A program made the translations under genes and the position numbers. Below, one piece after another: positions 1,694 through 63,665 of a stretch of DNA of 64,000 nucleotides (positions are counted from its first letter, which is position 1; every line of letters begins with the position of its first letter). The notes below the pieces were generated by a model. It saw only the letters and a list, made by a program, of their open reading frames with translations, ran no database searches and had not been told where the DNA came from. The stretch is from a virus. The stretch spans positions 35,865 to 99,864 of the IMG/VR virus record IMGVR_UViG_3300027816_000081; one strand, given 5' to 3'.

Positions 1694-4600
1694 TTATGTC
1701 TTACCGACCATTATTTCAACGATTCCTAATTCACCGTTGAAGTTTTCTAGTGATTTACCTACGATTCTTCCTGCACTAGCAGCATTATTTGCATATGCAT
1801 ATCCTGGAATAGTCGCGGTAGTTAATAAGTCACCTTTATTGACGGGGCCCATTACCTTACATGGTACACGTCCAATAAGAGCAACTTCAACTACGTTTTC
1901 GCCTTCAAGCAAGGCGTTCATGATGTATGCAGGATTAGTAGTGACAACTCCTGCAACCTTATGCGAATCAGCAACATTTTCAATCGTTACTTCATTTTCG
2001 CCGCCGAGAACAACAACTGTCCCTGGCTCATAGGCTTCGTCTGCTACGTAACGTTCTGCAAGGTCAGCGTAAGTAGCTTGCCATCTTGAACCGGCAGTGA
2101 GAGTCCAGTTACCAGTTACTGTACCTGCTGTTGTGTTTGCGCCGGTTGTGATGTTTGCTGTTTGTAGAGCTCCGCTCAACACAGTTGTAGTTGCTGTAAG
2201 ATTGATACTAGATGTTACGTTGCTTGCGGTTACGATACGAATACCACCAGAAGCAGTTGACCACGGTGCAATAGTTAGGTTAGCATTACCCTGGGCAGAG
2301 CTATTAGCATACACGATCATTGCATCGTCAGCGCCGGTCAAATTATTATATGACCCTGCGCCGGCTCTTGGAATCAAACCTATATCTTGTGTACCATTAA
2401 CGGCTCTAATGATTTTAGTGGTACTTCCTGTCCCGGATGAATCTGTAGAAGCGAAACCTGTTGTCCCAGTAACTGCGAGCGTAGTTAGTGTACCGACACT
2501 CGTGATATTAGGTTGCGCCGCTGTTGTTACTGTGCCTGCTGTTGTTGCGCTTCCTGCGCTTGTTGCGAAAGTTGCGTTAGCTACAGTACCGGTGACATTT
2601 GCACCAGTAATTGATGCTAGATTTGCACCAGACAGTCCAGCAGCAAATGTAGCGGATGAGCCAATTGCACTATTCCAAGTACCGCTAGTAACTGTACCTG
2701 TAGTAGTTAAACTTGCTGAACCGGCTAGCGGGCTTGCGCCAATTGAGTTGTGTGATATAGTTCTAGCGGTGCCACCGTTAAATGTTGTACCACTCGCATC
2801 ACCAGTGCCACCGTTGTTGAATGTTATTGTTTGTGTAGTATTAGCTGTAACTGTACCCGAGCCGCCCAATGAGATAGCAGTGCCGTTAACAGTTAGTGAG
2901 CTATTAGCAAGTCTTGTTTGTGCTAGCGTACCAGTTGTGATGTTGCTTGCATTCAACGCAGATAGACCGCTGCCATTGCCTGTAAACACACCTGTATTGG
3001 CAGTAATATTAGCAGCGGTAATATTCCCGCTCACATCCAATGATGTTAGTGTACCAACGCTCGTAATGTTGGGCTGAGCCGCAGTAGTTACCGTGCCTGC
3101 TGTTGTTGCCGATCCGGCACTAGTTGCGAAGCCTGCGTTAGCAACATTCAAGTTTGCCACTTGAGTTGTGGATGTAACGACTAATGGAGCAGTGCCAGTT
3201 GCAACGTTACTGATCAATTGAGGAGCAGTTATGTTTGCTGTTGCAAGAACTTGTGCTGTTCCCAAATTGCCGACATTTGCGTTTCCTGTAGCATTCAGTG
3301 TACCAAATACGTTTGCACCAGTAGTGGTAACATTCATCATTGCAGTATTATTTGGTGCCAATGAGATTCTTGGACCACTAGTGGCACTGCCGGTAGCAAT
3401 TGTTGCGATTGAAACTGAAACGTTATCTACAACTTGAGTTCTGAATATAGTATTAGGTGAATTCAAGTCGTTATAGATGCCGGAACCAGTACCTGCGGTT
3501 CTGATGCCTAATTGTCCGGTGCCAGTTGCAATATCCAAGAAGTAACCAGAACCAAGACCAACGTTAATTGATAACGGACTGTTGGTTCTTACACCACTTC
3601 CTGCTACAACAAGAACGTTTGCGTTTCCTGCTGCTGAAATATTCACATTACCATTTGCAGCAGGAATACTGACATTACTGTTGCCGTTTGCAAAGACACC
3701 GAGTAGATTGCCGACGGTAACATTTCCTGTTACTGATAGTGAGGTTAGTGTACCTACTGAAGTGATATTTGGTTGTGCGGCTGTTGTTAAAGTACCAGTT
3801 AATAGACTTGCACCGATTGTACCTGAGTTGGCATAAACATTACCAGCAGTTACGTTACCGGTAACACTGGCGCTCGTTAGAGTACCGACGCTCGTGATAT
3901 TTGGCTGTGCCGCTGTTGTTAAAGTACCAGTTAGTAAACTTGCACCGATTGTACCTGCGTTAGCATAGACGTTGCCTGCGGTGACATTTCCAGTAACAGC
4001 AAGACTTGTTAACGTACCGACGCTCGTGATATTTGGCTGCGCCGCTGTTGTTACTGTGCCTGCTGTGGTTGCAGTTGTCGCACTAGTTGCAGTGCCGCTT
4101 AGTGAACCAACAAACGTAGTAGCAGTGATACTTGCATTAGCTAAGTTAGCACTAATTGCTGTATTGATTACTGCACTTGAATTTCCATTTGCGCTTGAAG
4201 TGCTAAATGTTGGGTATACAGTAGTTGCTGCTGAGGTATTTTGTAATAATGCACTAGCATTGGTTGCTGCTGTTGCGCTTGCTACAGTACCAGTAACATT
4301 AGCGCCCGGTATGTTAGACAAGCTCGTTGCATTACCACTGAACACATTAGCTGTAATAGTTCCTGATGTAACTGTGATGTTTCCAGCGTTGATATTACCA
4401 GAAACAATCAGTGATGTGATCGTACCAAGACTTGTAATATTGGGTTGGGCAGCAGTTGTCACAGTTCCGGCTGTAGTTGCAGTTGATGCAGTGCCGCTTA
4501 GTGAACCAACAAACGTAGTAGCAGTGATACTTGCATTAGCTAAGTTAGCACTAATTCCCGAGTTAACTACCTGCTGCGACCATCCATTTGATGCAGAGGT

Positions 4601-7600
4601 AACGAATGTCGGGAATGCGCTAGTTGCACTTGAAGTATTAGTCAACAAACTGCTTGCAGAAGCAGCATTTGCAACAGTTCCGGTTACGTTTGCACCAGGA
4701 ATATTACTTAGATTGGTAGCATTTCCTGAGAAAATATTAGCAGTAATTGTACCTGATGTAACTGTTATGTTTCCGGCGTTAATGTTTCCAGAAACAATCA
4801 ATGATGATATCGTACCAAGACTTGTGATATTTGGCTGTGCTGCTGTTGTTAAAGTACCAGTTAGTAAACTTGCACCGATTGTACCTGCGTTAGCGTATAC
4901 GTTTCCAAAAGTTGCAGTGTTTACAACTGTTAGTCCACCGCCTACACTAAGATTCCCAGTATTTTTGTTGAAGGTTAAGTTCGCATTACCTGCGTAAGTT
5001 GAGCCGCCATCATTGAAAATAACTTGTGTGTTAGCACCTTGTGCAGGAACTAATGTAGCGGTATCCCATGTTAGACTGCCTGAACCATTCGTTCTTAAGA
5101 AAGCACCGTTGGACCCGCCTGTAATAATTACGTTACTGTTGGGGCCTAGATTGCTCACACCAACTACGTTAAGACCAGTTAATGTACCCAAACTCGTTAC
5201 ATTAGGCTGCGCCGCTGTTGCTAGCGTACCGGTTACCAGTGTAGCAGAAATATTTCCTGCCGACAAATTACCTGTTACGTTAGCAGTGCCATTGATATTT
5301 GCACCAGTACCGGTTACGACTACAACGTTAGCATTTCCGGCGGAACTGATTCTCACATTGCTGTTAGCGTCAACTGTTACGTTTGAGTTACCGTTGACAA
5401 TGAAACTACCTGCACTAACTGCGATGTTAGTCAATAGACCACCGTCACCCTGGAAGAAGTTTGCAACTGCAAGATTGCCTAAGTTTGCATTTCCTGATGA
5501 TAGATTTCCAGAAACAGTCAATGAAGACAGTGTACCAACACTCGTAATGTTTGGTTGCGCTGCTGTAGTTACTGTACCTGCGGTAGTAGCTGCACCAGCA
5601 GTAGCAGCATTCAAGTTAGCAACTTGTGTAGTACTTGTTACTACTAGCGGAGCTGTACCAGTGGCAACATTTGATATTAGTTGAGGCGCAGTAACGTTAG
5701 CAGTTGCAAGAACTCGTGCTGTGCCCAAATTACCAACGTTAGCATTACCTGTTGCATTGAGTGTTCCTGCAATATTTGCACCGGTCCCGGTTACGACTAC
5801 AATGTTAGCATTACCGGCGGCGCTGATATTGACATTGCCATTTGCAGCAGGAATATTAACATTGCTGTTTCCGTTTGCCAAAGCACCTATGAAATTACCC
5901 GACGTAGTGTTTCCACTCACACTTAAACTGGTCAATGTGCCAACACTAGTAATGTTGGGCTGAGCGGCAGTTGTTACTGTACCTGCTGTGGTAGCACTCG
6001 TTGCTGTTGTAGCTGAGTTGGCAGTACCATAGAAATTACCAATGAAGAAATTAGCATTTACAGCATTTCCTAAGTTAGCATTTCCTGATGAGATATTTCC
6101 ACTAACAGACAGCGAAGTGAGAGTACCGACACTCGTAATATTAGGTTGAGAAGAAGTTGTTAACGTCCCACCTAACAATAGAGCACCGATTGTACCTGAG
6201 TTAGCATACATATTGCCAGCAGTTACATTACCCGTTACCGCAAGAGAAGTTAAAGTACCAACGCTTGTGATATTAGGTTGCGCTGCTGTTGTTACTGTGC
6301 CTGCTGTAGTTGCAGTAGTTGCACTAGGCACAGTGCCAGTCACGTTGGCGCCAGCTAGATTAGTAAGTCCTGCGCCATTACCAGTAAAGATTCCGGTATT
6401 TGCAGTGAATGCGACTGCGGTTACAGTTCCGTTTACACCAAGTGATGTTAGCGTGCCAACACTAGTGATGTTAGGCTGTGATGCAGTTGTCACAGTACCA
6501 GCAGTGCCCGCGGTAGCAGCATTCAAGTTTGCAACTTGAGTAGTTGATGTAACTACTAGTGGTGCAGTACCAGTTGCAATATTACTGATTAACTGCGTGC
6601 CTGAGATGTTTCCAGTAGCAATAACTCTGCCTGTACCTAAATTAGCAACATTAGCATTACCGGTTGCGTTTAACGTACCTGCTACGTTGACACCTGTACC
6701 AGTCATTACTACGACATTAGCATTTCCTGCAATGTCAAAATTGATGTTTCCGTTAGCAGCAGGAATAGCAATGTCTGAGTTGCCATTAGCAAGATTACCT
6801 ACAAAATTAGCAGCGGTGACATTACCCGTAACTGATAGACTTGTCAACGTGCCTACTGAGGTAATGTTTGGTTGTGCAGCGGTTGTTACGGTGCCGGCAG
6901 TAGTTGCACTTGTTGCTGCACCAGACAGAGCACCAACAAATGTAGTTGCAGTAATAGAGGCGTTACCTAAGTTCGCACTAATACCTGTGTTGATTACTGC
7001 ACTTGAGTTTCCATTCGCACTTGAGGTAGTGAATGTCGGATATACTGTTGTTGCAGTTGAGGTGTTCTGTAGAAGTGCGCTTGCATTTGTTGCTGCGCCT
7101 GCTGTGGCAGCATTCAAGTTTGCAACTTGTGTGGTTGAGTTGACAACAAGAGGAGCAGTACCAGTTGCAACGTTTGAGATTAATTGGGGAGCAGTGACAT
7201 TGGCAGTAGCTAATACTTGTGCAGTTCCCAAATTACCAACGTTAGCGTTACTTGTTACGCTTAATGCACCGGTGGTAGTTAAGTTGCCACCTGTGATATT
7301 TCCAGTTACGTTAGCGGTGCCTGTTGCAACAATTGATGTAGTTCCCAAATTACCAACGTTAGCGTTACCTGTAGCATTTAATGTACCAGTAATGTTAGCT
7401 CCGGTTGCAGTAACGTTCATAGTAGCGTTACTTCCGATTACTATGTTGAGGTTTCCGCCGGAGACAGGGATGTTGGCATAGCTAGTGCCATTCAATATTC
7501 TTGTATTTGCAACTGCACTTACGTTGGTAAGATTACTTCCATCGCCGTACAAGAAATTAGCATTTACTATATTAGCATTGATGTTGCCGGCAACATTAGC

Positions 7601-8200
7601 AGTTGCAGCGGTAATTAGTGCAGTAGCATTAATATTTCCTGCATTGACATTTGCTGTAATGTTAGCATTGGCAGTAACATTCAAGTTACCAGTTACGTTT
7701 GCATTTGCACCTACTAGTATATTGTTGGTAATATTAGCATTGTTGGCATTAACATTAGCAGTAGTAGCTATGTTTCCTGTAAAGCTAGCGGTATTACCGT
7801 TGATTTGTAGATTAACATTGACGGTATTAGCGGTAAGAGTGTTTCCTATAGTGATATTTGAAACACCGGTGACATTTGCCGGCAAGTTAATAAAGAACGG
7901 AACTGAGCCGTTAGTAATAAAGGCTAGTGGGCCGGGACTAGCGGGTGAGCCAGTAGAAAGATCAAGAGTAGAACTTTCAATTCTGACTTGAGCGATGTTA
8001 GCACTTACAACAACATTTCCAGTAGGCGAGTTAACGGTGATACCTGCACCTGCGGTTCTATTAACCGAGATAACTGCCTGATCTTGAAGACCTGAAAATA
8101 ATTCGGTAAAATTCTGTTGAACTTTGTCAAATGCTGTTCTGATTGCATCTGCATTTGGATCGTCAGGAAAACTACCAAAGTCAATATTGCGTTGTGCCAT
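1694..8200 (-). CDS. Very long tail fibre/adhesin (~2170 aa) with TTAGTVTTAAQPNITSVGTLTSL repeats and C-terminal intramolecular-chaperone-like domain
   Basis: Many copies of the repeat; C-terminal YADLAERY...VAGVVTTNPAY..N...VALIGRVPCKV.G...KGD module; ATG 8200 (MAQRNIDFG) preferred over 8212 because of SD spacing and upstream late promoter. Confidence 0.85.
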   Translation of the reverse strand: MAQRNIDFGSFPDDPNADAIRTAFDKVQQNFTELFSGLQDQAVISVNRTAGAGITVNSPTGNVVVSANIAQVRIESSTLDLSTGSPASPGPLAFITNGSVPFFINLPANVTGVSNITIGNTLTANTVNVNLQINGNTASFTGNIATTANVNANNANITNNILVGANANVTGNLNVTANANITANVNAGNINATALITAATANVAGNINANIVNANFLYGDGSNLTNVSAVANTRILNGTSYANIPVSGGNLNIVIGSNATMNVTATGANITGTLNATGNANVGNLGTTSIVATGTANVTGNITGGNLTTTGALSVTSNANVGNLGTAQVLATANVTAPQLISNVATGTAPLVVNSTTQVANLNAATAGAATNASALLQNTSTATTVYPTFTTSSANGNSSAVINTGISANLGNASITATTFVGALSGAATSATTAGTVTTAAQPNITSVGTLTSLSVTGNVTAANFVGNLANGNSDIAIPAANGNINFDIAGNANVVVMTGTGVNVAGTLNATGNANVANLGTGRVIATGNISGTQLISNIATGTAPLVVTSTTQVANLNAATAGTAGTVTTASQPNITSVGTLTSLGVNGTVTAVAFTANTGIFTGNGAGLTNLAGANVTGTVPSATTATTAGTVTTAAQPNITSVGTLTSLAVTGNVTAGNMYANSGTIGALLLGGTLTTSSQPNITSVGTLTSLSVSGNISSGNANLGNAVNANFFIGNFYGTANSATTATSATTAGTVTTAAQPNITSVGTLTSLSVSGNTTSGNFIGALANGNSNVNIPAANGNVNISAAGNANIVVVTGTGANIAGTLNATGNANVGNLGTARVLATANVTAPQLISNVATGTAPLVVTSTTQVANLNAATAGAATTAGTVTTAAQPNITSVGTLSSLTVSGNLSSGNANLGNLAVANFFQGDGGLLTNIAVSAGSFIVNGNSNVTVDANSNVRISSAGNANVVVVTGTGANINGTANVTGNLSAGNISATLVTGTLATAAQPNVTSLGTLTGLNVVGVSNLGPNSNVIITGGSNGAFLRTNGSGSLTWDTATLVPAQGANTQVIFNDGGSTYAGNANLTFNKNTGNLSVGGGLTVVNTATFGNVYANAGTIGASLLTGTLTTAAQPNITSLGTISSLIVSGNINAGNITVTSGTITANIFSGNATNLSNIPGANVTGTVANAASASSLLTNTSSATSAFPTFVTSASNGWSQQVVNSGISANLANASITATTFVGSLSGTASTATTAGTVTTAAQPNITSLGTITSLIVSGNINAGNITVTSGTITANVFSGNATSLSNIPGANVTGTVASATAATNASALLQNTSAATTVYPTFSTSSANGNSSAVINTAISANLANASITATTFVGSLSGTATSATTATTAGTVTTAAQPNITSVGTLTSLAVTGNVTAGNVYANAGTIGASLLTGTLTTAAQPNITSVGTLTSASVTGNVTAGNVYANSGTIGASLLTGTLTTAAQPNITSVGTLTSLSVTGNVTVGNLLGVFANGNSNVSIPAANGNVNISAAGNANVLVVAGSGVRTNSPLSINVGLGSGYFLDIATGTGQLGIRTAGTGSGIYNDLNSPNTIFRTQVVDNVSVSIATIATGSATSGPRISLAPNNTAMMNVTTTGANVFGTLNATGNANVGNLGTAQVLATANITAPQLISNVATGTAPLVVTSTTQVANLNVANAGFATSAGSATTAGTVTTAAQPNITSVGTLTSLDVSGNITAANITANTGVFTGNGSGLSALNASNITTGTLAQTRLANSSLTVNGTAISLGGSGTVTANTTQTITFNNGGTGDASGTTFNGGTARTISHNSIGASPLAGSASLTTTGTVTSGTWNSAIGSSATFAAGLSGANLASITGANVTGTVANATFATSAGSATTAGTVTTAAQPNITSVGTLTTLAVTGTTGFASTDSSGTGSTTKIIRAVNGTQDIGLIPRAGAGSYNNLTGADDAMIVYANSSAQGNANLTIAPWSTASGGIRIVTASNVTSSINLTATTTVLSGALQTANITTGANTTAGTVTGNWTLTAGSRWQATYADLAERYVADEAYEPGTVVVLGGENEVTIENVADSHKVAGVVTTNPAYIMNALLEGENVVEVALIGRVPCKVMGPVNKGDLLTTATIPGYAYANNAASAGRIVGKSLENFNGELGIVEIMVGKT
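4088..4556. repeat. Identical 70-bp direct repeat (4088-4157 and 4487-4556) inside the fibre gene
   Basis: tgcagtgccgcttagtgaaccaacaaacgtagtagcagtgatacttgcattagctaagttagcactaatt occurs twice, 399 bp apart (in frame). Confidence 0.9.
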
Positions 8201-8223
8201 GTTAATTATCACCCATTATATTG

Positions 8224-27022: not shown

Positions 27023-27373
27023 TTACATACCAAGCATTTTGGATATAACAGGCCAGCCCAATGCGCCTGCTAAAATGCCTGCACCCATCATCATCCAGCG
27101 CCACTTTTCTAGAGCAGTTACTTTCTTTTCAAGTTCACCGTGCTGAGTTTTGTTTTCTTCTTGTAAAGTGGTGAGTGTTTCTTCAAAATGAGTTTTAGCA
27201 TTTTCAATGGCGGTGTTAATGTTTGCCATATGAGTGTCAATGTGATCGCGGAAGTCCTTCAGGTCAGCTTTTAAATCATCTACTTTTTCGTTTAAATGAG
27301 TATACTGAACCTGAAGGACCGCAATTTCGGTCTCAGTCTGCTTAAGTTTTTGAACCGTACTAGTCTGAGCCAT
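27023..27373 (-). CDS. Coiled-coil protein with C-terminal transmembrane helix
   Basis: Heptad-rich N-terminus; WRWMMMGAGILAGALGWPVI. Confidence 0.7.
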   Translation of the reverse strand: MAQTSTVQKLKQTETEIAVLQVQYTHLNEKVDDLKADLKDFRDHIDTHMANINTAIENAKTHFEETLTTLQEENKTQHGELEKKVTALEKWRWMMMGAGILAGALGWPVISKMLGM

Positions 27374-27383
27374 CGTTTATTCC

Positions 27384-28628
27384 TTATGCGTTGCCAATTT
27401 GTACAATTGGGTAAGGCTGTGCATTTGCTACGTTTGCAGCAGCGGCAGCATTGAAGGTTGAGAATGCCGGGTTAGCATTCTGCAATACAATGTTACCTGT
27501 TGCAACTGGACCTGAGGTTGCAGTGAACAATTCAGCAGTGTGATCGCTCAAGCTCTGAACCTTAACAGTTGCACTGTTAGCATAAGTTGCAGTGATTGTC
27601 ATTGTGTTTGGAGTCAATGCAGCATTAGCAACGTTAGCAGTGAAGCAAGCACCGGTTAGACCAGTGGTTGTTCCTGTAACGAGATACTTTTGCTTGCCCT
27701 TTTGACGAACAATGTAACCTGCTTCCGGGGTTGCATAGATATATGCTGCTCCAGAAAGATTTGCACTTGCATCATTTACGAGAAGTGTAGTATCCTGAAG
27801 TGCATATGATTCTGCATCTTCGTTAGACAATCCAACATTTGCTCCGCCTGGTGCCAATGACACGGTGAATGCAGATGCGTTAGGAATTGCCTTAACAAAG
27901 TAAGTAGTTCCGGCACTTAAGCCACCGATATCAGCAGTTAGCACGACTGGAAGATTTGCAGTCAATGTCTGTGCGTTTCCTACAGTAGTCAAGAAGTTGC
28001 CAGTTGCGGTTGCATTTGAAATTTCAATGTTTGCAAGACCGGTTGCAGTGTCAACATAACCTAGGGTTACTGGTTGACCGTTAGCAGCAACATACTGAAT
28101 TACTGAACCTGCTGCAACGTTGCCTAAGTCAGTACCTAAGCCACCTACTACGTTGCTTGAATCAGATGCATATAGAGTACCTTCTCCATTCTGACCAATA
28201 GCAACATTGCAAAGTACTTGCTTACCGAATAGTGCAGTGTTACCACCAACTACTGAGTAAGTGTTTGCGTTTGTTGCTGGCCATTGTGGACCAAGTGGAT
28301 TGTTGAAATACATATCAACAGGAGCAACAGTTGTTGAAACTGTGCCTGATGCGGTTGACAAGTCTTTTGGAGTACTGGTTGGGTTAGCATTAAGTGGAGT
28401 TTCAGAAACAGTGAATGTGCTGTTGTTGCCAGCGTTCACTACCTTAAGAATCCAGTACAATGTACCAGCTACTAGGCCACCGATGTTAGTTGCAGTTACG
28501 AAGGGCATACCTGCAATAATACCAAGATTAGTGAAGTTTGCATTGGTTGTAACTAAATCAGTAGAGTTGGTTGTGTTTGTGATTGTGATGACTGCCTGTG
28601 CTTTGGCAATCTTTAGTGGACGACCCAT
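27384..28628 (-). CDS. Virion structural protein (MGRPLK N-terminus) with two repeated beta modules
   Basis: Late promoter, TAAGGAGA SD; GGL.AGT.Y...F.VS repeats; GYIVRQKGKQKYLV. Confidence 0.7.
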   Translation of the reverse strand: MGRPLKIAKAQAVITITNTTNSTDLVTTNANFTNLGIIAGMPFVTATNIGGLVAGTLYWILKVVNAGNNSTFTVSETPLNANPTSTPKDLSTASGTVSTTVAPVDMYFNNPLGPQWPATNANTYSVVGGNTALFGKQVLCNVAIGQNGEGTLYASDSSNVVGGLGTDLGNVAAGSVIQYVAANGQPVTLGYVDTATGLANIEISNATATGNFLTTVGNAQTLTANLPVVLTADIGGLSAGTTYFVKAIPNASAFTVSLAPGGANVGLSNEDAESYALQDTTLLVNDASANLSGAAYIYATPEAGYIVRQKGKQKYLVTGTTTGLTGACFTANVANAALTPNTMTITATYANSATVKVQSLSDHTAELFTATSGPVATGNIVLQNANPAFSTFNAAAAANVANAQPYPIVQIGNA

Positions 28629-28718
28629 TTGTTTTCTCCTTATAGTTGCGGGTTCTAGCCGCTACGCAGTGGGTTCTGCATAAACGTTCTCACTTGTTGA
28701 GAACGTGTAATGTATTTA
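28629..28718 (-). promoter_or_regulatory. Late promoter plus three-hairpin structured 5' leader
   Basis: Stems 28684-28706, 28663-28682 and 28648-28662 between TAAATA and the SD. Confidence 0.65.
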
Positions 28719-28734
28719 TCTTTATTGCGAAAAA

Positions 28735-29157
28735 TTAAGGAGCCCAGGGTCTACCTTCAAGTAGTCCCAATGGGTGTGGGTTAGGAGTAGAAACGTTTCC
28801 TATATACTGTGAGGGCAATTCTGTAATATCGTAAACATTATATGGATTGCCATCTTGTGTTCTGTCTAGTGTTGCCAAATCTAATTTAGCAAGTTGTCTG
28901 TCCTGTAATGTAGGGAGTCTGCCTATTAAATTACCAGTGCCTAAAACAGAACCATCTATGATATTATAACTAACAAGAGTGTTGGCATCATCTAACACTT
29001 CTTCATTAAAATTGACATTATACCAAGTTGAATCAGTACCGGTCGCAGTGTCAATGGTAGATTTTAATGTGGCAACGGTAATACCATCACTGACTGTATA
29101 CTCATCAAACTGTCCCGCGTTCAATAAGCTTTGAACGGTGATAGTAATAGTTGCCAT
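28735..29157 (-). CDS. Ubiquitin-like (beta-grasp) domain protein with C-terminal extension
   Basis: TVATLKSTI...G...FNEEVLDDANTLVSYNIIDGSVL parallels ubiquitin TIENVKAKI...G...[23 protein letters not shown]. Confidence 0.72.
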   Translation of the reverse strand: MATITITVQSLLNAGQFDEYTVSDGITVATLKSTIDTATGTDSTWYNVNFNEEVLDDANTLVSYNIIDGSVLGTGNLIGRLPTLQDRQLAKLDLATLDRTQDGNPYNVYDITELPSQYIGNVSTPNPHPLGLLEGRPWAP

Positions 29158-32100
29158 TATAGTCTACCTACTGCGACCTCAATTATGCCCTCATGACCAT
29201 CAAAGTCTTGTAATGCTTTACCAATAACTGTACCGATTGACGGGGACATATTTGATTTTGCGAAGCCACCGCCGGCTGAAACAAGCATATCACCCTTAGT
29301 AATCTTTCCGCGAACTTTACATGGTACACGACCCTGTAGCGCAATTGCAGTTAATAATCCTGGACATGTAGAGTTCATTACATAGGCTGGGTTGGTAGAT
29401 ACGACACCGGCTACTCTGTTAGTTTCGTCTTCTGCTAGAGAGACTTCCTTTTCGCCCCCGAACATTAATACGGTACCCGGAGTATAAATGTCATCGGCTT
29501 CATAGTATTCTGCAAGGTCAGCGTAGGTAGCTTGCAGTCTGGAACCACTAGTCAGTGTCCAGTTACCTGTAATTGTGCCGGCTGTAGTGTTTGCACCAGC
29601 AGTGATGTTCGTTGTAGTTAGCGCGCCGCTTACATTTAATGAGGTGAGTGTACCAACACTCGTGATATTAGGTTGGGCTGCTGTTGTCACAGTACCGGCA
29701 GTAGTTGCACTAGTGGCACTTGATACAGTACCCGTTACATTAGCGCCCGCAACCAATCCATTGAAAGTAACATTACTTGCTGTTTGTGTGATGGAGCCAA
29801 CCGGGGTGCTTGCAGCATTGAAGAACGTCATTAGGTTAGTAACGTCAACTGTTGGCTGCAGGGCCAAACCATATAATGTGCCGCCGCCGGTAAATCTGAT
29901 ACCCACTGCACTACTTGCGCCACCAATTTGAGTATAACCTCCTATTTCAAGTGCATTGCTAGTAGAAGTCATACTAGTTTTACCTGATACAGTAAGACTT
30001 GATAGCGTACCGGTTGAGGTAATGTTAGGCTGTGCTGCCGTTGTTACTGTGCCTGCGGTAGTTGCTGAGCTTACTGTACCGGTAACATTTGCGCCGGCAA
30101 TTGCACTCAAGCCACTACCATTACCAGTGAATACACCAGTATTTGCAGTAATGTTTGCAGCAGTGATATTACCACTAACACCCAATGATGTTAATGTACC
30201 AACGCTTGTGATGTTTGGCTGTGCTGCTGTTGTTACTGTACCAGCAGTTGTTGCAGCGCCTGACAGTGAACCAACGAATGTAGTAGAAGTGACACTAGAT
30301 AGGCCATCAACAGTTGTAACGGTAGAACCTAACGTCAACGCCGTGCTACCTAAAGTTACACTTGCATTCGCTAGTCTTGCTTGAGCAAGAGTTCCTGTTG
30401 AAATATTACTTGCATTCAACGCAGATAGACCACTACCATTGCCCGTAAACACACCTGTATTAGCAGTAAATGCAGGGGCAGTTATTGTACCGGCTACGTT
30501 TAAAGCCGCACTGACATTGGTGTTAGTAGCGTTTAAGAAAATAGTAGCAGTATTTGATACTGATTGTATTCTAATACCAGTGTTTCCGCTTGCCCAAGGA
30601 GCAATAGTTAAGTTTGCATTTCCTATAGCAGACGAGTTGCCAAAAGTAATTAATGTATCGTCTGCTGCGGTCAAGGTATTGTATGATCCGGCACCCGCTC
30701 TAGGAATAAGTGCAATATCCTGAGTACCATTTACCGCTCTTATTATCTTAGTAATTGAAGCAGCGGCTGAGGAATCTGTAGACACTACACCAGTAGTACC
30801 TGAAACAGCAAGTGTAGTTAACGTACCAACACTAGTAATATTAGGTTGTGCTGCTGTAGTGAGTGTGCCGGCTAATAGTGTTGCTGATAGCGCACCAGTT
30901 GCAGCATTAAAAGATAAGTTTGCGTTGGCAGCTAATGCTCTGTTTCCAGTAGAACTACTATTCACAAATACTGGGAAGAAAGTTCCTGTAGTTTGGGCAG
31001 TTACTACTCCAAAATCAGACACGTTGGCATATGAAACATTTAAGTTTGCTACACGAGTAGTAGAAGTGACTGTTAGTGGTGCTGTGCCAGTAGCAATGTT
31101 TGATATCATCTGAGTTGAAGTTACAATACCTGACGCATTCAAGTTTCCAACGTTAGCATTGCCTACAATGCCTAGTACCTTAGGACTTGCTCCAAAGTTC
31201 CAAGTAAAGTCGGCATCGCCATCTAACAAATTACTGTTGTTAAATTGTACTGTAGTGTTTGAACCTGCTGCACCGCTGCCGCCTCCGCCCGATGATACGG
31301 ATGCAATTGCGCGGCCTCCGGTAGCATATACATTAGCTCCGGTCAACGTAGCCGTAGCTAGCACTTTAATGTTACCTGCTACACCATTTGCTAATAATTC
31401 TTCTGATACAGTAATCGTTGTTCCGCTAGGCTTAGCTTTAATGTAGTATGAAACATTATTTTCTAGTCCACTAGTACTCAAATCTCCCAAGAAAAGAACT
31501 TCTTGGTTTAGATTGAATACTGCTGAGTTACCTATTGTAACTCTATTAGTTGACGCAGATGTGGAAGTTGCAGTAGTATAAGAATATGTGTTATTAGTAA
31601 ATGCAATAGAATTTACCGGGGTAGTTAAGCTAGGATCACTGTACAGTGAGAAAGTATTAGACGTTAATACATTAGCATAATAAGTATTACCATTTAGGTC
31701 AGTCATTCCTGCTGCATTTGTGATTGTGATTTCTGCGCCGTCAGTAAAGAAGTTGTCCTGCGTGGTAGTGACTACAGCTGGATTAGCAGTAGTAACGTTC
31801 TGAATAAAAGCGATAACAGTTGATTTAGGTGTCCAAGACAAATTACCCAAACCATCAGTCTCAAGAACATAACCGATTGCGCCGCCCGTAATCTTCACAT
31901 TAGATGCATCGCCTAATGTGATCAAGCCGCCGGCATCGCCGCCGCGATTGACCCAATTGTTTCCGTCAAATGTTAAGACTTGCCCATCAGCAACCGTAAC
32001 GTTACTGATATTTAAATTACCAACCGAACCATTGAGTTGGCTGTAATTAATCTGAGAGTATGAAGTCAATACTTCAATATTTTCGTTGGGGGTGGTTTTA

Positions 32101-32216
32101 CCGATAAAGAGACGCTTAGCGTCACTTGCCCAACCAAACTCTGCTTCGTCTAGTTGAGGTAAGTCAACTAGATTACCGGAACGTTGCTGAATCTTTGAAA
32201 TTTGGATAATTGCCAT
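29157..32216 (-). CDS. Tail fibre (1019 aa) with AQPNITSVGTL repeats and C-terminal chaperone-like domain
   Basis: N-terminal IQ.R.G...LPQL...EFGW..D..RLFIG virion-attachment motif; same repeats and YADLAEYY C-terminus as the 2170-aa fibre. Confidence 0.85.
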   Translation of the reverse strand: MAIIQISKIQQRSGNLVDLPQLDEAEFGWASDAKRLFIGKTTPNENIEVLTSYSQINYSQLNGSVGNLNISNVTVADGQVLTFDGNNWVNRGGDAGGLITLGDASNVKITGGAIGYVLETDGLGNLSWTPKSTVIAFIQNVTTANPAVVTTTQDNFFTDGAEITITNAAGMTDLNGNTYYANVLTSNTFSLYSDPSLTTPVNSIAFTNNTYSYTTATSTSASTNRVTIGNSAVFNLNQEVLFLGDLSTSGLENNVSYYIKAKPSGTTITVSEELLANGVAGNIKVLATATLTGANVYATGGRAIASVSSGGGGSGAAGSNTTVQFNNSNLLDGDADFTWNFGASPKVLGIVGNANVGNLNASGIVTSTQMISNIATGTAPLTVTSTTRVANLNVSYANVSDFGVVTAQTTGTFFPVFVNSSSTGNRALAANANLSFNAATGALSATLLAGTLTTAAQPNITSVGTLTTLAVSGTTGVVSTDSSAAASITKIIRAVNGTQDIALIPRAGAGSYNTLTAADDTLITFGNSSAIGNANLTIAPWASGNTGIRIQSVSNTATIFLNATNTNVSAALNVAGTITAPAFTANTGVFTGNGSGLSALNASNISTGTLAQARLANASVTLGSTALTLGSTVTTVDGLSSVTSTTFVGSLSGAATTAGTVTTAAQPNITSVGTLTSLGVSGNITAANITANTGVFTGNGSGLSAIAGANVTGTVSSATTAGTVTTAAQPNITSTGTLSSLTVSGKTSMTSTSNALEIGGYTQIGGASSAVGIRFTGGGTLYGLALQPTVDVTNLMTFFNAASTPVGSITQTASNVTFNGLVAGANVTGTVSSATSATTAGTVTTAAQPNITSVGTLTSLNVSGALTTTNITAGANTTAGTITGNWTLTSGSRLQATYADLAEYYEADDIYTPGTVLMFGGEKEVSLAEDETNRVAGVVSTNPAYVMNSTCPGLLTAIALQGRVPCKVRGKITKGDMLVSAGGGFAKSNMSPSIGTVIGKALQDFDGHEGIIEVAVGRL

Positions 32217-32258
32217 AAGTGTATTCTTTACCTACTGAATACACTTATTTATGCTTGG

Positions 32259-62042: not shown

Positions 62043-63665
62043 TTAAGTTATCTCTTGCCATTCTATGCTTGCGTACACATCTTGGTTAGTACCAGTAGTA
62101 GCCATTGTGATCACATACTCATACATTACCCCAGTAAATGGTTCTCTTTCAAGTTGATACTCAAATCCAAATGCTTCTTGTACCGGTGCACTACTACTTT
62201 GATTGCTTGAGTTAATAAATGATTGTTCAGCAATGTCGCCACTTACTAACGTGGCAGGTGCAAGATTGTATTGTACTGCACTATCTGGTGCACTATCTAC
62301 CCAAGTACCACCTGAGGTAATGGCTCGTTTAAAAACACGGTATTGGAATATGCTCTGTGCAGCCGGCACTAGTGAATAGTTGATAGGAATAACAACTGCA
62401 TCTGACATTGTGCTTTTTAGTCTTATTGCTATTACTGGTTTAAAACTTAGATCATTTGGCAATCTTACCGGAGCACTAAGCGTATGCGATGCTGCTCTTG
62501 GGTTACCTGAACCTGATAGCTGGAAGCCGCCCTCACTAATCACACTGGCACAAATCTGTCTCATCAAGCTTGGACTTGCGGTTGCACCAGTATTCGTAAG
62601 TTCACAACGCAATGGTAGTGTCGCAGTGGTCATATACGTAGTAGTGTTATCAGTAGTCGGAGTGCTTATCACGTTTGCGTGATGGAATGAGTGACAAGTG
62701 ATATAAACGCCGTCAATAATGAAGCCCACTCTAACAGTTCCTACGCCCAACCATTCAACGTCAATCCAAAAAATCTGATCTAGCGCAGGGTTTAGTGTGA
62801 TGCCGCTTGGGTTATTAGCCCCGCCGGCGCCATTTAGTCTGTCACCGTTCCATTGACTTTGCGGGATTCTATCTTCTACAAGTACACCTGTGCTACTACT
62901 TCTGATTACCATGTTGAGCGTAGTGCCGGCAACTTCAAAATATATTCCGTTCTGTGCTCCGAAATATCCGATTCTTTGGCGAAGATTTGCTTTGGGAGTA
63001 CTCATACTGAATGAAGAAAGAATCAACAAACTCTTACCTGGTTGGTATGGGAAGGTCTTAGTTGTTTCTCGTAGAACACTGTCTCCTGACCCTTGTCCTA
63101 CTGTAAGTTCATATGAACTTGAGTTGGCATCATACTCAACATCTGCGGTGCCAGTGATACTATTACTAAATTGTTCATGATCATAATATCGTGCTTGCGT
63201 ATCATACAGGGTGTATGGGTTACTAACTCTTAGTCTACCAAAAGCATCTGTCGCTTCCTGAGCAAATGATACTTGTGCAGTACCAGTAATAGCAACATTA
63301 CCTTCAACCATCCAAGGATCAGTGCCCTGAGTAACTTCAACACTGTTGTCAATATTCACATTACCAGTGACGTTTGCGTTGACATTACCTTCAACCATCC
63401 AAGGGTCAGTACCCTGAAATACAGTAACATTACCTGCATCTATGTTGATATTGCCACTGACGGGCATTGTGTTGCCAGAAACATCAATGTTTCCGATTGC
63501 ATCTACTGTAACATTGCTAACGATTACGTTACCTGCAATAGTAACGTTACCGCCCACAATGCTTGACCGCATGTAAACATTACCGGTTGTTTCATCCAAC
63601 CCTAAGGCTTGAGTGATATTGCGTAAGTACCAAGGGCTCACATTTGCTGGATTAGGCTCGGCCAT
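62043..63665 (-). CDS. Putative virion protein with duplicated QGTDPWMVEGNV repeat and lectin-like C-terminal domain
   Basis: Late promoter; DAFGRLRVS, YQPGKS, WNGDRL.G, IFWID.EWLGVG.VRVGF. Confidence 0.6.
   Translation of the reverse strand: MAEPNPANVSPWYLRNITQALGLDETTGNVYMRSSIVGGNVTIAGNVIVSNVTVDAIGNIDVSGNTMPVSGNINIDAGNVTVFQGTDPWMVEGNVNANVTGNVNIDNSVEVTQGTDPWMVEGNVAITGTAQVSFAQEATDAFGRLRVSNPYTLYDTQARYYDHEQFSNSITGTADVEYDANSSSYELTVGQGSGDSVLRETTKTFPYQPGKSLLILSSFSMSTPKANLRQRIGYFGAQNGIYFEVAGTTLNMVIRSSSTGVLVEDRIPQSQWNGDRLNGAGGANNPSGITLNPALDQIFWIDVEWLGVGTVRVGFIIDGVYITCHSFHHANVISTPTTDNTTTYMTTATLPLRCELTNTGATASPSLMRQICASVISEGGFQLSGSGNPRAASHTLSAPVRLPNDLSFKPVIAIRLKSTMSDAVVIPINYSLVPAAQSIFQYRVFKRAITSGGTWVDSAPDSAVQYNLAPATLVSGDIAEQSFINSSNQSSSAPVQEAFGFEYQLEREPFTGVMYEYVITMATTGTNQDVYASIEWQEIT

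Follow-up and report, generated by a model that had tools for sequence, protein, structure and literature searches.

The 140-residue protein P0001 begins with a domain that is clearly a real ubiquitin-type fold, and it belongs to a family that is widespread in tailed phages and has gone undescribed; a full-text literature search turned up no account of a structural protein of a tailed phage with a ubiquitin-family domain. To our knowledge, domains of the PF00240 type have been regarded as belonging to eukaryotes and to the large DNA viruses of eukaryotes, and the only beta-grasp domains we know to have been described in tailed phages are distant, ThiS-like ones such as that of lambda gpI. Throughout a broad clade of large T4-like phages from aquatic sources, the ubiquitin-type domain is a stable part, held under purifying selection, of a gene that otherwise encodes a structural module. 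This previously unnamed module of 64 residues marks out a new family, modular in build, whose members are putative surface proteins of phages. The role of P0001 is most likely structural rather than that of a signalling ubiquitin.

The ubiquitin-family domain of P0001

The window, by which we mean the whole stretch of 64,000 nucleotides that was analysed, comes from a 99,864-bp IMG/VR fragment with a completeness of ~29% (CheckV estimate). It encodes tail sheath, tail tube and neck proteins, TerL, and gp32-like and UvsX-like genes, and several of its proteins are closest to those of T4-like cyanomyoviruses; because of this set of structural and replication genes and these cyanomyovirus-like proteins, the source phage is assigned as a large T4-like myovirus of an uncultured lineage. 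One related phage record is a complete genome of 354,959 bp with terminal repeats present. The first-pass annotation had correctly placed the gene at 28735-29157, which lies on the minus strand (Table 1). P0001 has no tblastn match in GenBank phages, to which the surrounding region gives short exonuclease matches only, and no family for it exists in PHROGs, NCBIfam or PADLOC. Its homologues nevertheless form at least 172 clusters, nearly all of 138-146 residues.

Table 1. Positions of the features discussed in the text, numbered from the first nucleotide of the window.
Feature	Position	Strand	Basis
Ubl + module gene (P0001), 140 aa, stop included	28735..29157	minus	ORF list and translation
Ubiquitin-family beta-grasp domain, residues 1-76	28930..29157	minus	AF2, Foldseek, VIA-align, PF00240, PDB profile match
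Conserved module, residues 77-140	28738..28929	minus	Alignment conservation; stands N-terminal in many proteins
1019-aa fibre-like protein, upstream of the Ubl gene	29157..32216	minus	Pfam and PHROG tail-fibre matches
414-aa Thr/Ala/Asn-rich protein, downstream	27384..28628	minus	Kept behind the Ubl gene in closest relatives
phrog_1645 "virion structural protein", 540 aa, beside TerL	62043..63665	minus	PHROG, AF2, synteny
Late-promoter-like ATAAATA (CATAAATA), ~30 nt before the fibre ATG	32246..32252	minus	Motif search
Late-promoter-like ATAAATA (GATAAATA), after the Ubl stop and ahead of the next gene	28713..28719	minus	Motif search
Start-proximal ATAAATA copies	8224, 11453, 11943, 12748, 14700, 18444, 20268, 23509		
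Start-proximal ATAAATA copies, remainder	28713, 32246, 34827, 36252, 60464, 63695		

That residues 1-76 are a true relative of ubiquitin, in fold and in sequence, is established by several comparisons. Every ubiquitin motif that had been picked out by eye is present and stands in the register of ubiquitin (T27-V..L31-K32..I35, G40, F50....L55.D57..T60-L61..Y64-N65-I66 and S70.L72). The Pfam ubiquitin model PF00240 matches P0001 with an E value of 1.1e-4 and 22.3 bits, which is below its cut-off of 25.4 bits, and it matches close relatives of P0001 with 25.9-34.7 bits. A profile built from 30 family members and compared with PDB sequences matches single ubiquitin chains at E ~1e-5 and polyubiquitin at E 1e-58, and in a HMMER scan of 1.8 billion representatives the sole matches outside the family extend over multiple stretches at ~30% identity, which we read as polyubiquitins. 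Among the Ubl families in Pfam, scans of P0001 and its relatives return only ubiquitin, Ubiquitin_2 and Rad60-SLD; the YukD family, whose name JGI attaches to some relatives, gives no match in these scans.

The AlphaFold2 model computed with the family alignment (pLDDT 86 and pTM 0.77 for P0001, with pLDDT 87-96 across residues 1-76) places a beta-grasp at residues 3-76; residues 84-101 then form a helix and 116-125 a hairpin, and the last residues, 131-140, are disordered. All of the best 50 Foldseek matches in the PDB are ubiquitin, ISG15 or UBL domains, with ubiquitin and ISG15 at the top (TM ~0.9, rmsd 1.2 Å, 24-28% identity), and VIA-align against 48,161 representative chains likewise puts ubiquitin first, with a Z score of 14.3 and an rmsd of 1.1 Å over 74 residues. 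By profile, Foldseek and VIA-align, the domain is therefore of the ubiquitin family, and the earlier impression that it is closer to ubiquitin than to ThiS or MoaD holds. The best-kept part of the Ubl is beta1 together with the beta1-beta2 loop, in which V-Q-S-L-L-N at residues 8-13 is nearly invariant and which is enlarged relative to ubiquitin by an insertion of three residues; this near-invariance suggests a conserved contact surface.

The surfaces and the tail on which ubiquitin signalling depends are a different matter. Beta5 (residues 71-76) passes straight into the conserved 64-residue module without a free tail, position 75 is G, A or H across the family and is followed by an invariant Asn, and P0001 ends in GRPWAP, the absence of a terminal di-Gly having been noted already on first reading. 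Because beta5 enters the module directly, position 75 is variable and the end is GRPWAP, the domain is predicted to be non-conjugatable and not a modifier. In the register of the alignment between the family profile and PDB sequences, the Leu8/Ile44/His68/Val70 patch is not kept, with Ile44, His68 and Val70 of ubiquitin replaced by Asn49, Gly73 and Gly75, and Lys27 is the only lysine of ubiquitin for which a conserved counterpart (Lys32) exists. Profile searches for a ThiF-type E1 (PF00899) and a JAB protease (PF14464), which covered phage-encoded genes and which did match in control genomes, found neither in the record from which the window comes nor in any of four relatives, one of which is the complete 355-kb genome. 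The PADLOC models in the library of 2023, including those for defence Ubl systems, gave no match at E<=1 to P0001 or to three relatives.

A conserved module with interchangeable passengers

The remainder of P0001 had been described in the first-pass annotation as a tail of ~65 residues; the segment is there, and what was missed is that the whole family is built around it as a conserved core. The module, 64 residues with the family motif N-G-I-S...G-R-P-W, consists of the helix and the hairpin named above and closes with an invariant G-L-x-x-G-R-P-W, which the AlphaFold2 monomer model leaves disordered; an end that is invariant and yet disordered in the modelled monomer looks like a partner-binding element. 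P0001 has the full-length module with its invariant N, T, Q, K-L, L-P, Y, N and G-R-P-W. With a mean column entropy of 1.13 for the module (residues 76-139) versus 1.44 for the Ubl, the module is somewhat more conserved overall. The dN/dS values of both halves of P0001 are ~0.04-0.17, rough figures in that synonymous sites are saturated in most pairs, and they indicate purifying selection on the Ubl and on the module alike.

A search of the representative library shows the module in a range of settings. Many proteins of 214-536 residues start with the entire 140-residue unit and then extend, and many others, of 68-693 residues, start at residue 4 with the 64-residue module alone (positions 4-67); several consist of the bare module, at 67-72 residues. 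The form found in P0001, Ubl and module alone, is the commonest among those with a Ubl (56 of 77 Ubl loci). Other proteins join the module through a Pro-rich linker to Laminin_G_3, GLEYA/PA14 or ILEI, or combine Ubl and module with a lectin or Gly_rich_2 domain, and some members have other N-terminal additions, of 20-190 residues, in the place of the Ubl. In the extended proteins the Pro-rich linkers begin directly after G-R-P-W. Passengers of this glycan-binding kind, carried on Pro-rich stalks, are a typical trait of phage proteins exposed at the surface. The predicted proteins together show a family architecture in which an optional N-terminal passenger precedes the module and an optional linker with a glycan-binding passenger follows it, so that what stays constant across the family is the module rather than the Ubl. 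Many sister phages have the module without any Ubl, and the existence of module-only proteins shows an independent role for the module.

The family was found in 287 + 324 IMG/VR stretches, the 324 loci coming from the search with the module, and all known members are from uncultured phages; none occurs in GenBank phages or in 185,579 bacterial and archaeal species genomes. Five related phage records, one of them the complete 355-kb genome, contain a single copy of the module gene each, only one copy of the module is present in the 100-kb fragment that contains the window, and at no locus was a second copy of the gene found within 8 kb.

Gene order around the fibre gene and the terminase gene

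In the window the Ubl gene follows the gene for a 1019-residue fibre-like protein. As had been seen on first reading, the two overlap: the Ubl ATG occupies 29157-29155 and has one base in common with the TAA that ends the fibre gene, giving TAATG, and an overlapping (TAATG) or abutting junction is kept in the relatives L001-L011. The motif (C/G)ATAAATA lies upstream of the fibre gene and follows the Ubl stop, with none before the Ubl gene, which is why fibre and Ubl look like one late bicistronic, two-gene unit; the earlier proposal of a late operon is plausible in view of the late-promoter-like motif ~30 nt before the fibre ATG. The window holds 19 copies of ATAAATA, in total no more than expected by chance, and for 14 of these the start codon of a structural or late gene follows 10-90 nt downstream. 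The pattern is consistent with a T4-like late promoter core that is here (C/G)ATAAATA rather than TATAAATA, a sequence that the window lacks.

The fibre has a conserved N-terminal part of 200-390 residues, E1_FCCH-like small barrels, a repetitive shaft and, at its C terminus, an intramolecular-chaperone (Peptidase_G2-like) domain, and homologues of it stand upstream of the Ubl gene at the loci L003-L010, L017 and L039. Residues 145-193 resemble E1_FCCH, a domain of ubiquitin-activating enzyme, at a sub-threshold level (E 2.3e-5, 24.8 bits against a cut-off of 29.5), and a second similar small barrel lies at about residues 215-290. Such a barrel might serve as a receptor for the Ubl; E1_FCCH-like small barrels are common in phage fibres. 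Elsewhere in the window, at 1694-8212 on the minus strand, a fibre-like protein of 2172 residues shares the C-terminal chaperone domain of the 1019-residue fibre (~52-55% identity) as well as repeat segments, and no Ubl gene comes after its gene.

Downstream of the Ubl gene is a 414-residue protein without a Pfam, PHROG or NCBIfam family. The idea that this ORF is the detached C terminus of a fused form was ruled out, as locus L005 has both a fused form of 365 residues and a 415-residue homologue downstream. The last gene of the fibre-Ubl-414 cluster, at 27023-27373 on the minus strand, encodes a 116-residue protein with a long coiled coil and, at its C terminus, a hydrophobic helix (W-R-W-M-M-M-G-A-G-I-L-A-G-A-L-G-W); this protein may be a membrane-anchored lysis or assembly protein.

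The closest relatives keep the order of a fibre gene (homologous over the N-terminal 200-470 residues), the Ubl gene, and a gene for a protein like the 414-residue one or of ~290 residues, an arrangement shared by L001-L011, L017, L022, L023 and L039. At the remaining Ubl loci, and at many loci without a Ubl, the gene sits between an ORF of ~90-105 residues and a phrog_1645 homologue, or before TerL, with spacers of 0-10 nt; in most relatives the module gene is directly upstream of the phrog_1645 homologue. In a tree of the module (64 columns, quick search, midpoint root) the 16 fibre-linked loci, reduced to 12 sequences after removal of duplicates (the window and 11 relatives), form one clade with an SH-aLRT of 96 that is nested among members from the TerL side. 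The proposed linkage to fibres is therefore real within one supported clade and is not a property of the whole family, in which other Ubl forms adjoin phrog_1645 or TerL; because the fibre-linked clade is derived and nested among TerL-side members, the linkage appears to be a secondary relocation. All Ubl-bearing members fall on one side of a weakly supported branch, and the tree is compatible with a single origin of the Ubl fusion. The N terminus of the fibre was tried as a phylogenetic marker and set aside as too generic, with matches in all five relatives whatever their gene order. Because the position of the gene varies among relatives between the terminase side and the fibre side, its neighbourhood does not name a docking partner.

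The phrog_1645 homologues of cyanomyoviruses are annotated as a virion structural protein in the g16-g17 region. For the homologue in the window, AlphaFold2 predicts a disordered N-terminal segment of 160 residues followed by two tandem ConA-like lectin sandwiches; legume lectins, GH16 enzymes and the receptor-binding domain of phage TM4 gp23 are among the closest solved folds. A weak ESM Atlas lead, that phrog_1645 carries an E1_FCCH domain, was rejected, with none of 22 homologues matching at E<=1. The small ORF upstream of the module gene at L012-L079 (for example L016:7729-7998 and L033:7684-7998) is tightly coupled and encodes ~90-105 residues, with an N-terminal helix M-R-A-T-E-F-I-R-x-L-L-D-L-I-D and a C-terminal K-H-P-A-D-I/L-R...Y-P motif; a homologue was not found in the 100-kb fragment that contains the window. 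The slot that the small ORF and the module gene occupy in relatives, upstream of phrog_1645, holds in the window a truncated methyltransferase-like ORF at the contig end (63706-63999, minus strand). A position before TerL might suggest that the module gene is the small terminase, and this was ruled out by the lectin fusions and by the annotation of the S-RIM8 TerS elsewhere in the region.

Proposed role and relation to known systems

Of the three roles put forward in the first-pass annotation, virion decoration, fibre assembly and a decoy for host defence, the first fits best, in view of the lectin-carrying module in structural clusters. We regard as probable, if modestly so, that P0001 is a late-expressed accessory subunit of the virion, of the decoration or adaptor type, with its non-conjugatable Ubl as a passenger. 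Several properties favour this reading: glycan-binding domains are joined to the module by Pro-rich stalks, the neighbours of the gene are late or structural throughout, the gene is confined to viruses with one copy in each of the records checked, domains can be added at either end of the module, and the invariant G-R-P-W end, disordered in the monomer, has the look of a partner-binding element. The Ubl gene would be transcribed with the fibre gene and translated by coupling to it, and the C-terminal module, as the constant functional core, would dock the protein onto a conserved component of the virion while tolerating passenger domains at either end. The only passenger in this phage would be the N-terminal ubiquitin-family domain, intact in structure and neither activatable nor conjugatable, and from an intact fold without activation or conjugation we infer that it acts as a non-covalent, probably exposed domain for protein interaction or stabilization.

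One important consideration is the similarity to the tail assembly protein I of lambda and T1, which would make P0001 a factor that is produced alongside the fibre, helps it to fold or attach and is absent from the mature virion. Lambda gpI has a comparable layout, with an N-terminal ubiquitin-like beta-grasp and a small C-terminal domain encoded beside the host-specificity fibre gene, and it is an assembly factor that is absent from the mature tail (PMC1779556). The analogy argues against a virion accessory and for a role outside the virion, and the translational coupling to the fibre gene is kept in the subclade; set against this, the fibre has a C-terminal intramolecular chaperone of its own, Ubl members outside the clade of 12 sequences do not adjoin a fibre gene, and fusions of the module to lectins on Pro-rich linkers, as seen in relatives, are unexpected for a chaperone. 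In addition, there is no match to the Pfam family Lambda_tail_I at E<=0.01, and no JAB partner was found in the phage. An assembly factor is thus unlikely in our estimation.

Ubiquitin also serves as a folding and solubility helper in cis for the ribosomal proteins eS31 and eL40, and the Ubl of P0001 could do the same for the module, with no interaction role of its own. The Ubl is indeed optional in the family, where module-only proteins and other N-terminal additions occur, and the Ile44 patch and most ubiquitin lysines are not conserved in the register of the alignment between family profile and PDB. We consider a pure helper in cis distinctly doubtful, however, in that the Ubl is retained under purifying selection through a wide clade, its near-invariant beta1 and residue 8-13 loop suggest a conserved contact surface, and in many phages the module folds and functions without it. 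To an explanation other than the four weighed here we give only a slim chance.

A decoy or shield against host defence, in which the Ubl engages the E1, E2 or JAB enzymes of Bil or CBASS (Cap2/Cap3) or masks the fibre from conjugation, might be suspected from the coupling to the fibre gene in the clade of the window and from the finding that Bil systems conjugate a Ubl to the central tail fibre of phages (10.1101/2023.09.04.556158), and we judge it highly improbable and its earlier proposal unsupported: Bil Ubls need a conserved C-terminal Gly, whereas here beta5 enters the module and leaves no free tail, the defence Ubl models of PADLOC do not match, in sequence the Ubl lies closest to ubiquitins of the eukaryotic type and not to bacterial Ubls, the gene context is late and structural and not early, many sister phages have the module without a Ubl, and the Ile44 patch is not kept in the register of the alignment between family profile and PDB.

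Beyond the reading as a virion accessory lies a more adventurous prospect, to which we attach very little probability, namely that a Ubl displayed on the fibre or elsewhere on the virion engages a Ubl-recognizing partner, for instance by occupying in advance or masking the site of Bil conjugation or by recruiting a deubiquitinase-like host enzyme, or else that ubiquitin has been exchanged between eukaryote-like sources and tailed phages. If a displayed Ubl did engage such a partner, phages would have co-opted ubiquitin itself as a structural counter-measure. The P0001 family also provides a reagent for asking whether bacterial Ubl defences or deubiquitinases recognize ubiquitin folds borne by phages.

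P0001 can be compared with four known systems. The first is ubiquitin and the UBL domains of eukaryotes (PF00240), with which it shares the beta-grasp (Z 14.3, rmsd 1.1 Å, 24-28% identity) and the T-I/V..V/L-K..I and F....L.D..TL..YNI motifs, and like the integral UBL domains of Rad23, Dsk2 and parkin its Ubl stays permanently in place at the N terminus of a longer chain. In contrast to eukaryotic ubiquitin, P0001 is encoded by a tailed phage, has no Gly-Gly, does not keep the Leu8/Ile44/His68/Val70 patch in the alignment register given above, and has an invariant beta1-beta2 loop with a three-residue insertion across its family. In the tail assembly protein I of lambda and T1 (TAPI, gpI), the Ubl is ThiS/MoaD-like with a conserved terminal Gly and is paired with the JAB/NlpC peptidase gpK, whereas the Ubl of P0001 is of the ubiquitin family, has no conserved processing Gly and has no JAB found in the phage. 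P0001 also differs from TAPI in lacking a match to Lambda_tail_I, in adjoining a fibre of another type, and in having a C-terminal module that carries lectin domains in relatives.

The Bil systems, in which conjugation of the Ubl to the central tail fibre requires a conserved C-terminal Gly (10.1101/2023.09.04.556158), are similar in that BilA has a ubiquitin-like fold and that the conflict between phage and bacterium is centred on tail fibres. BilA itself is a product of the host genome that combines two Ubl domains with an obligatory C-terminal Gly and acts together with E1, E2 and DUB partners; none of these is a feature of P0001.

Finally, decoration proteins such as T5 pb10 and T4 Hoc consist of a small virion-binding domain and an exposed passenger. 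The P0001 family resembles them in linking a short conserved domain to variable, often glycan-binding or Ig-like, exposed domains, and in having a dispensable passenger and a single-copy gene; it differs in that it has no detectable relationship to them in sequence or fold, and we know of no decoration protein with a ubiquitin-family domain. The kinds of component that meet in P0001 are thus known ones, integral UBL domains, Ubl-containing tail proteins of phages and modular decoration or adhesin proteins, and they amount to no new signalling system; what the family offers is a naturally occurring case of ubiquitin serving a bacterial virus as a building block that is not covalently conjugated.
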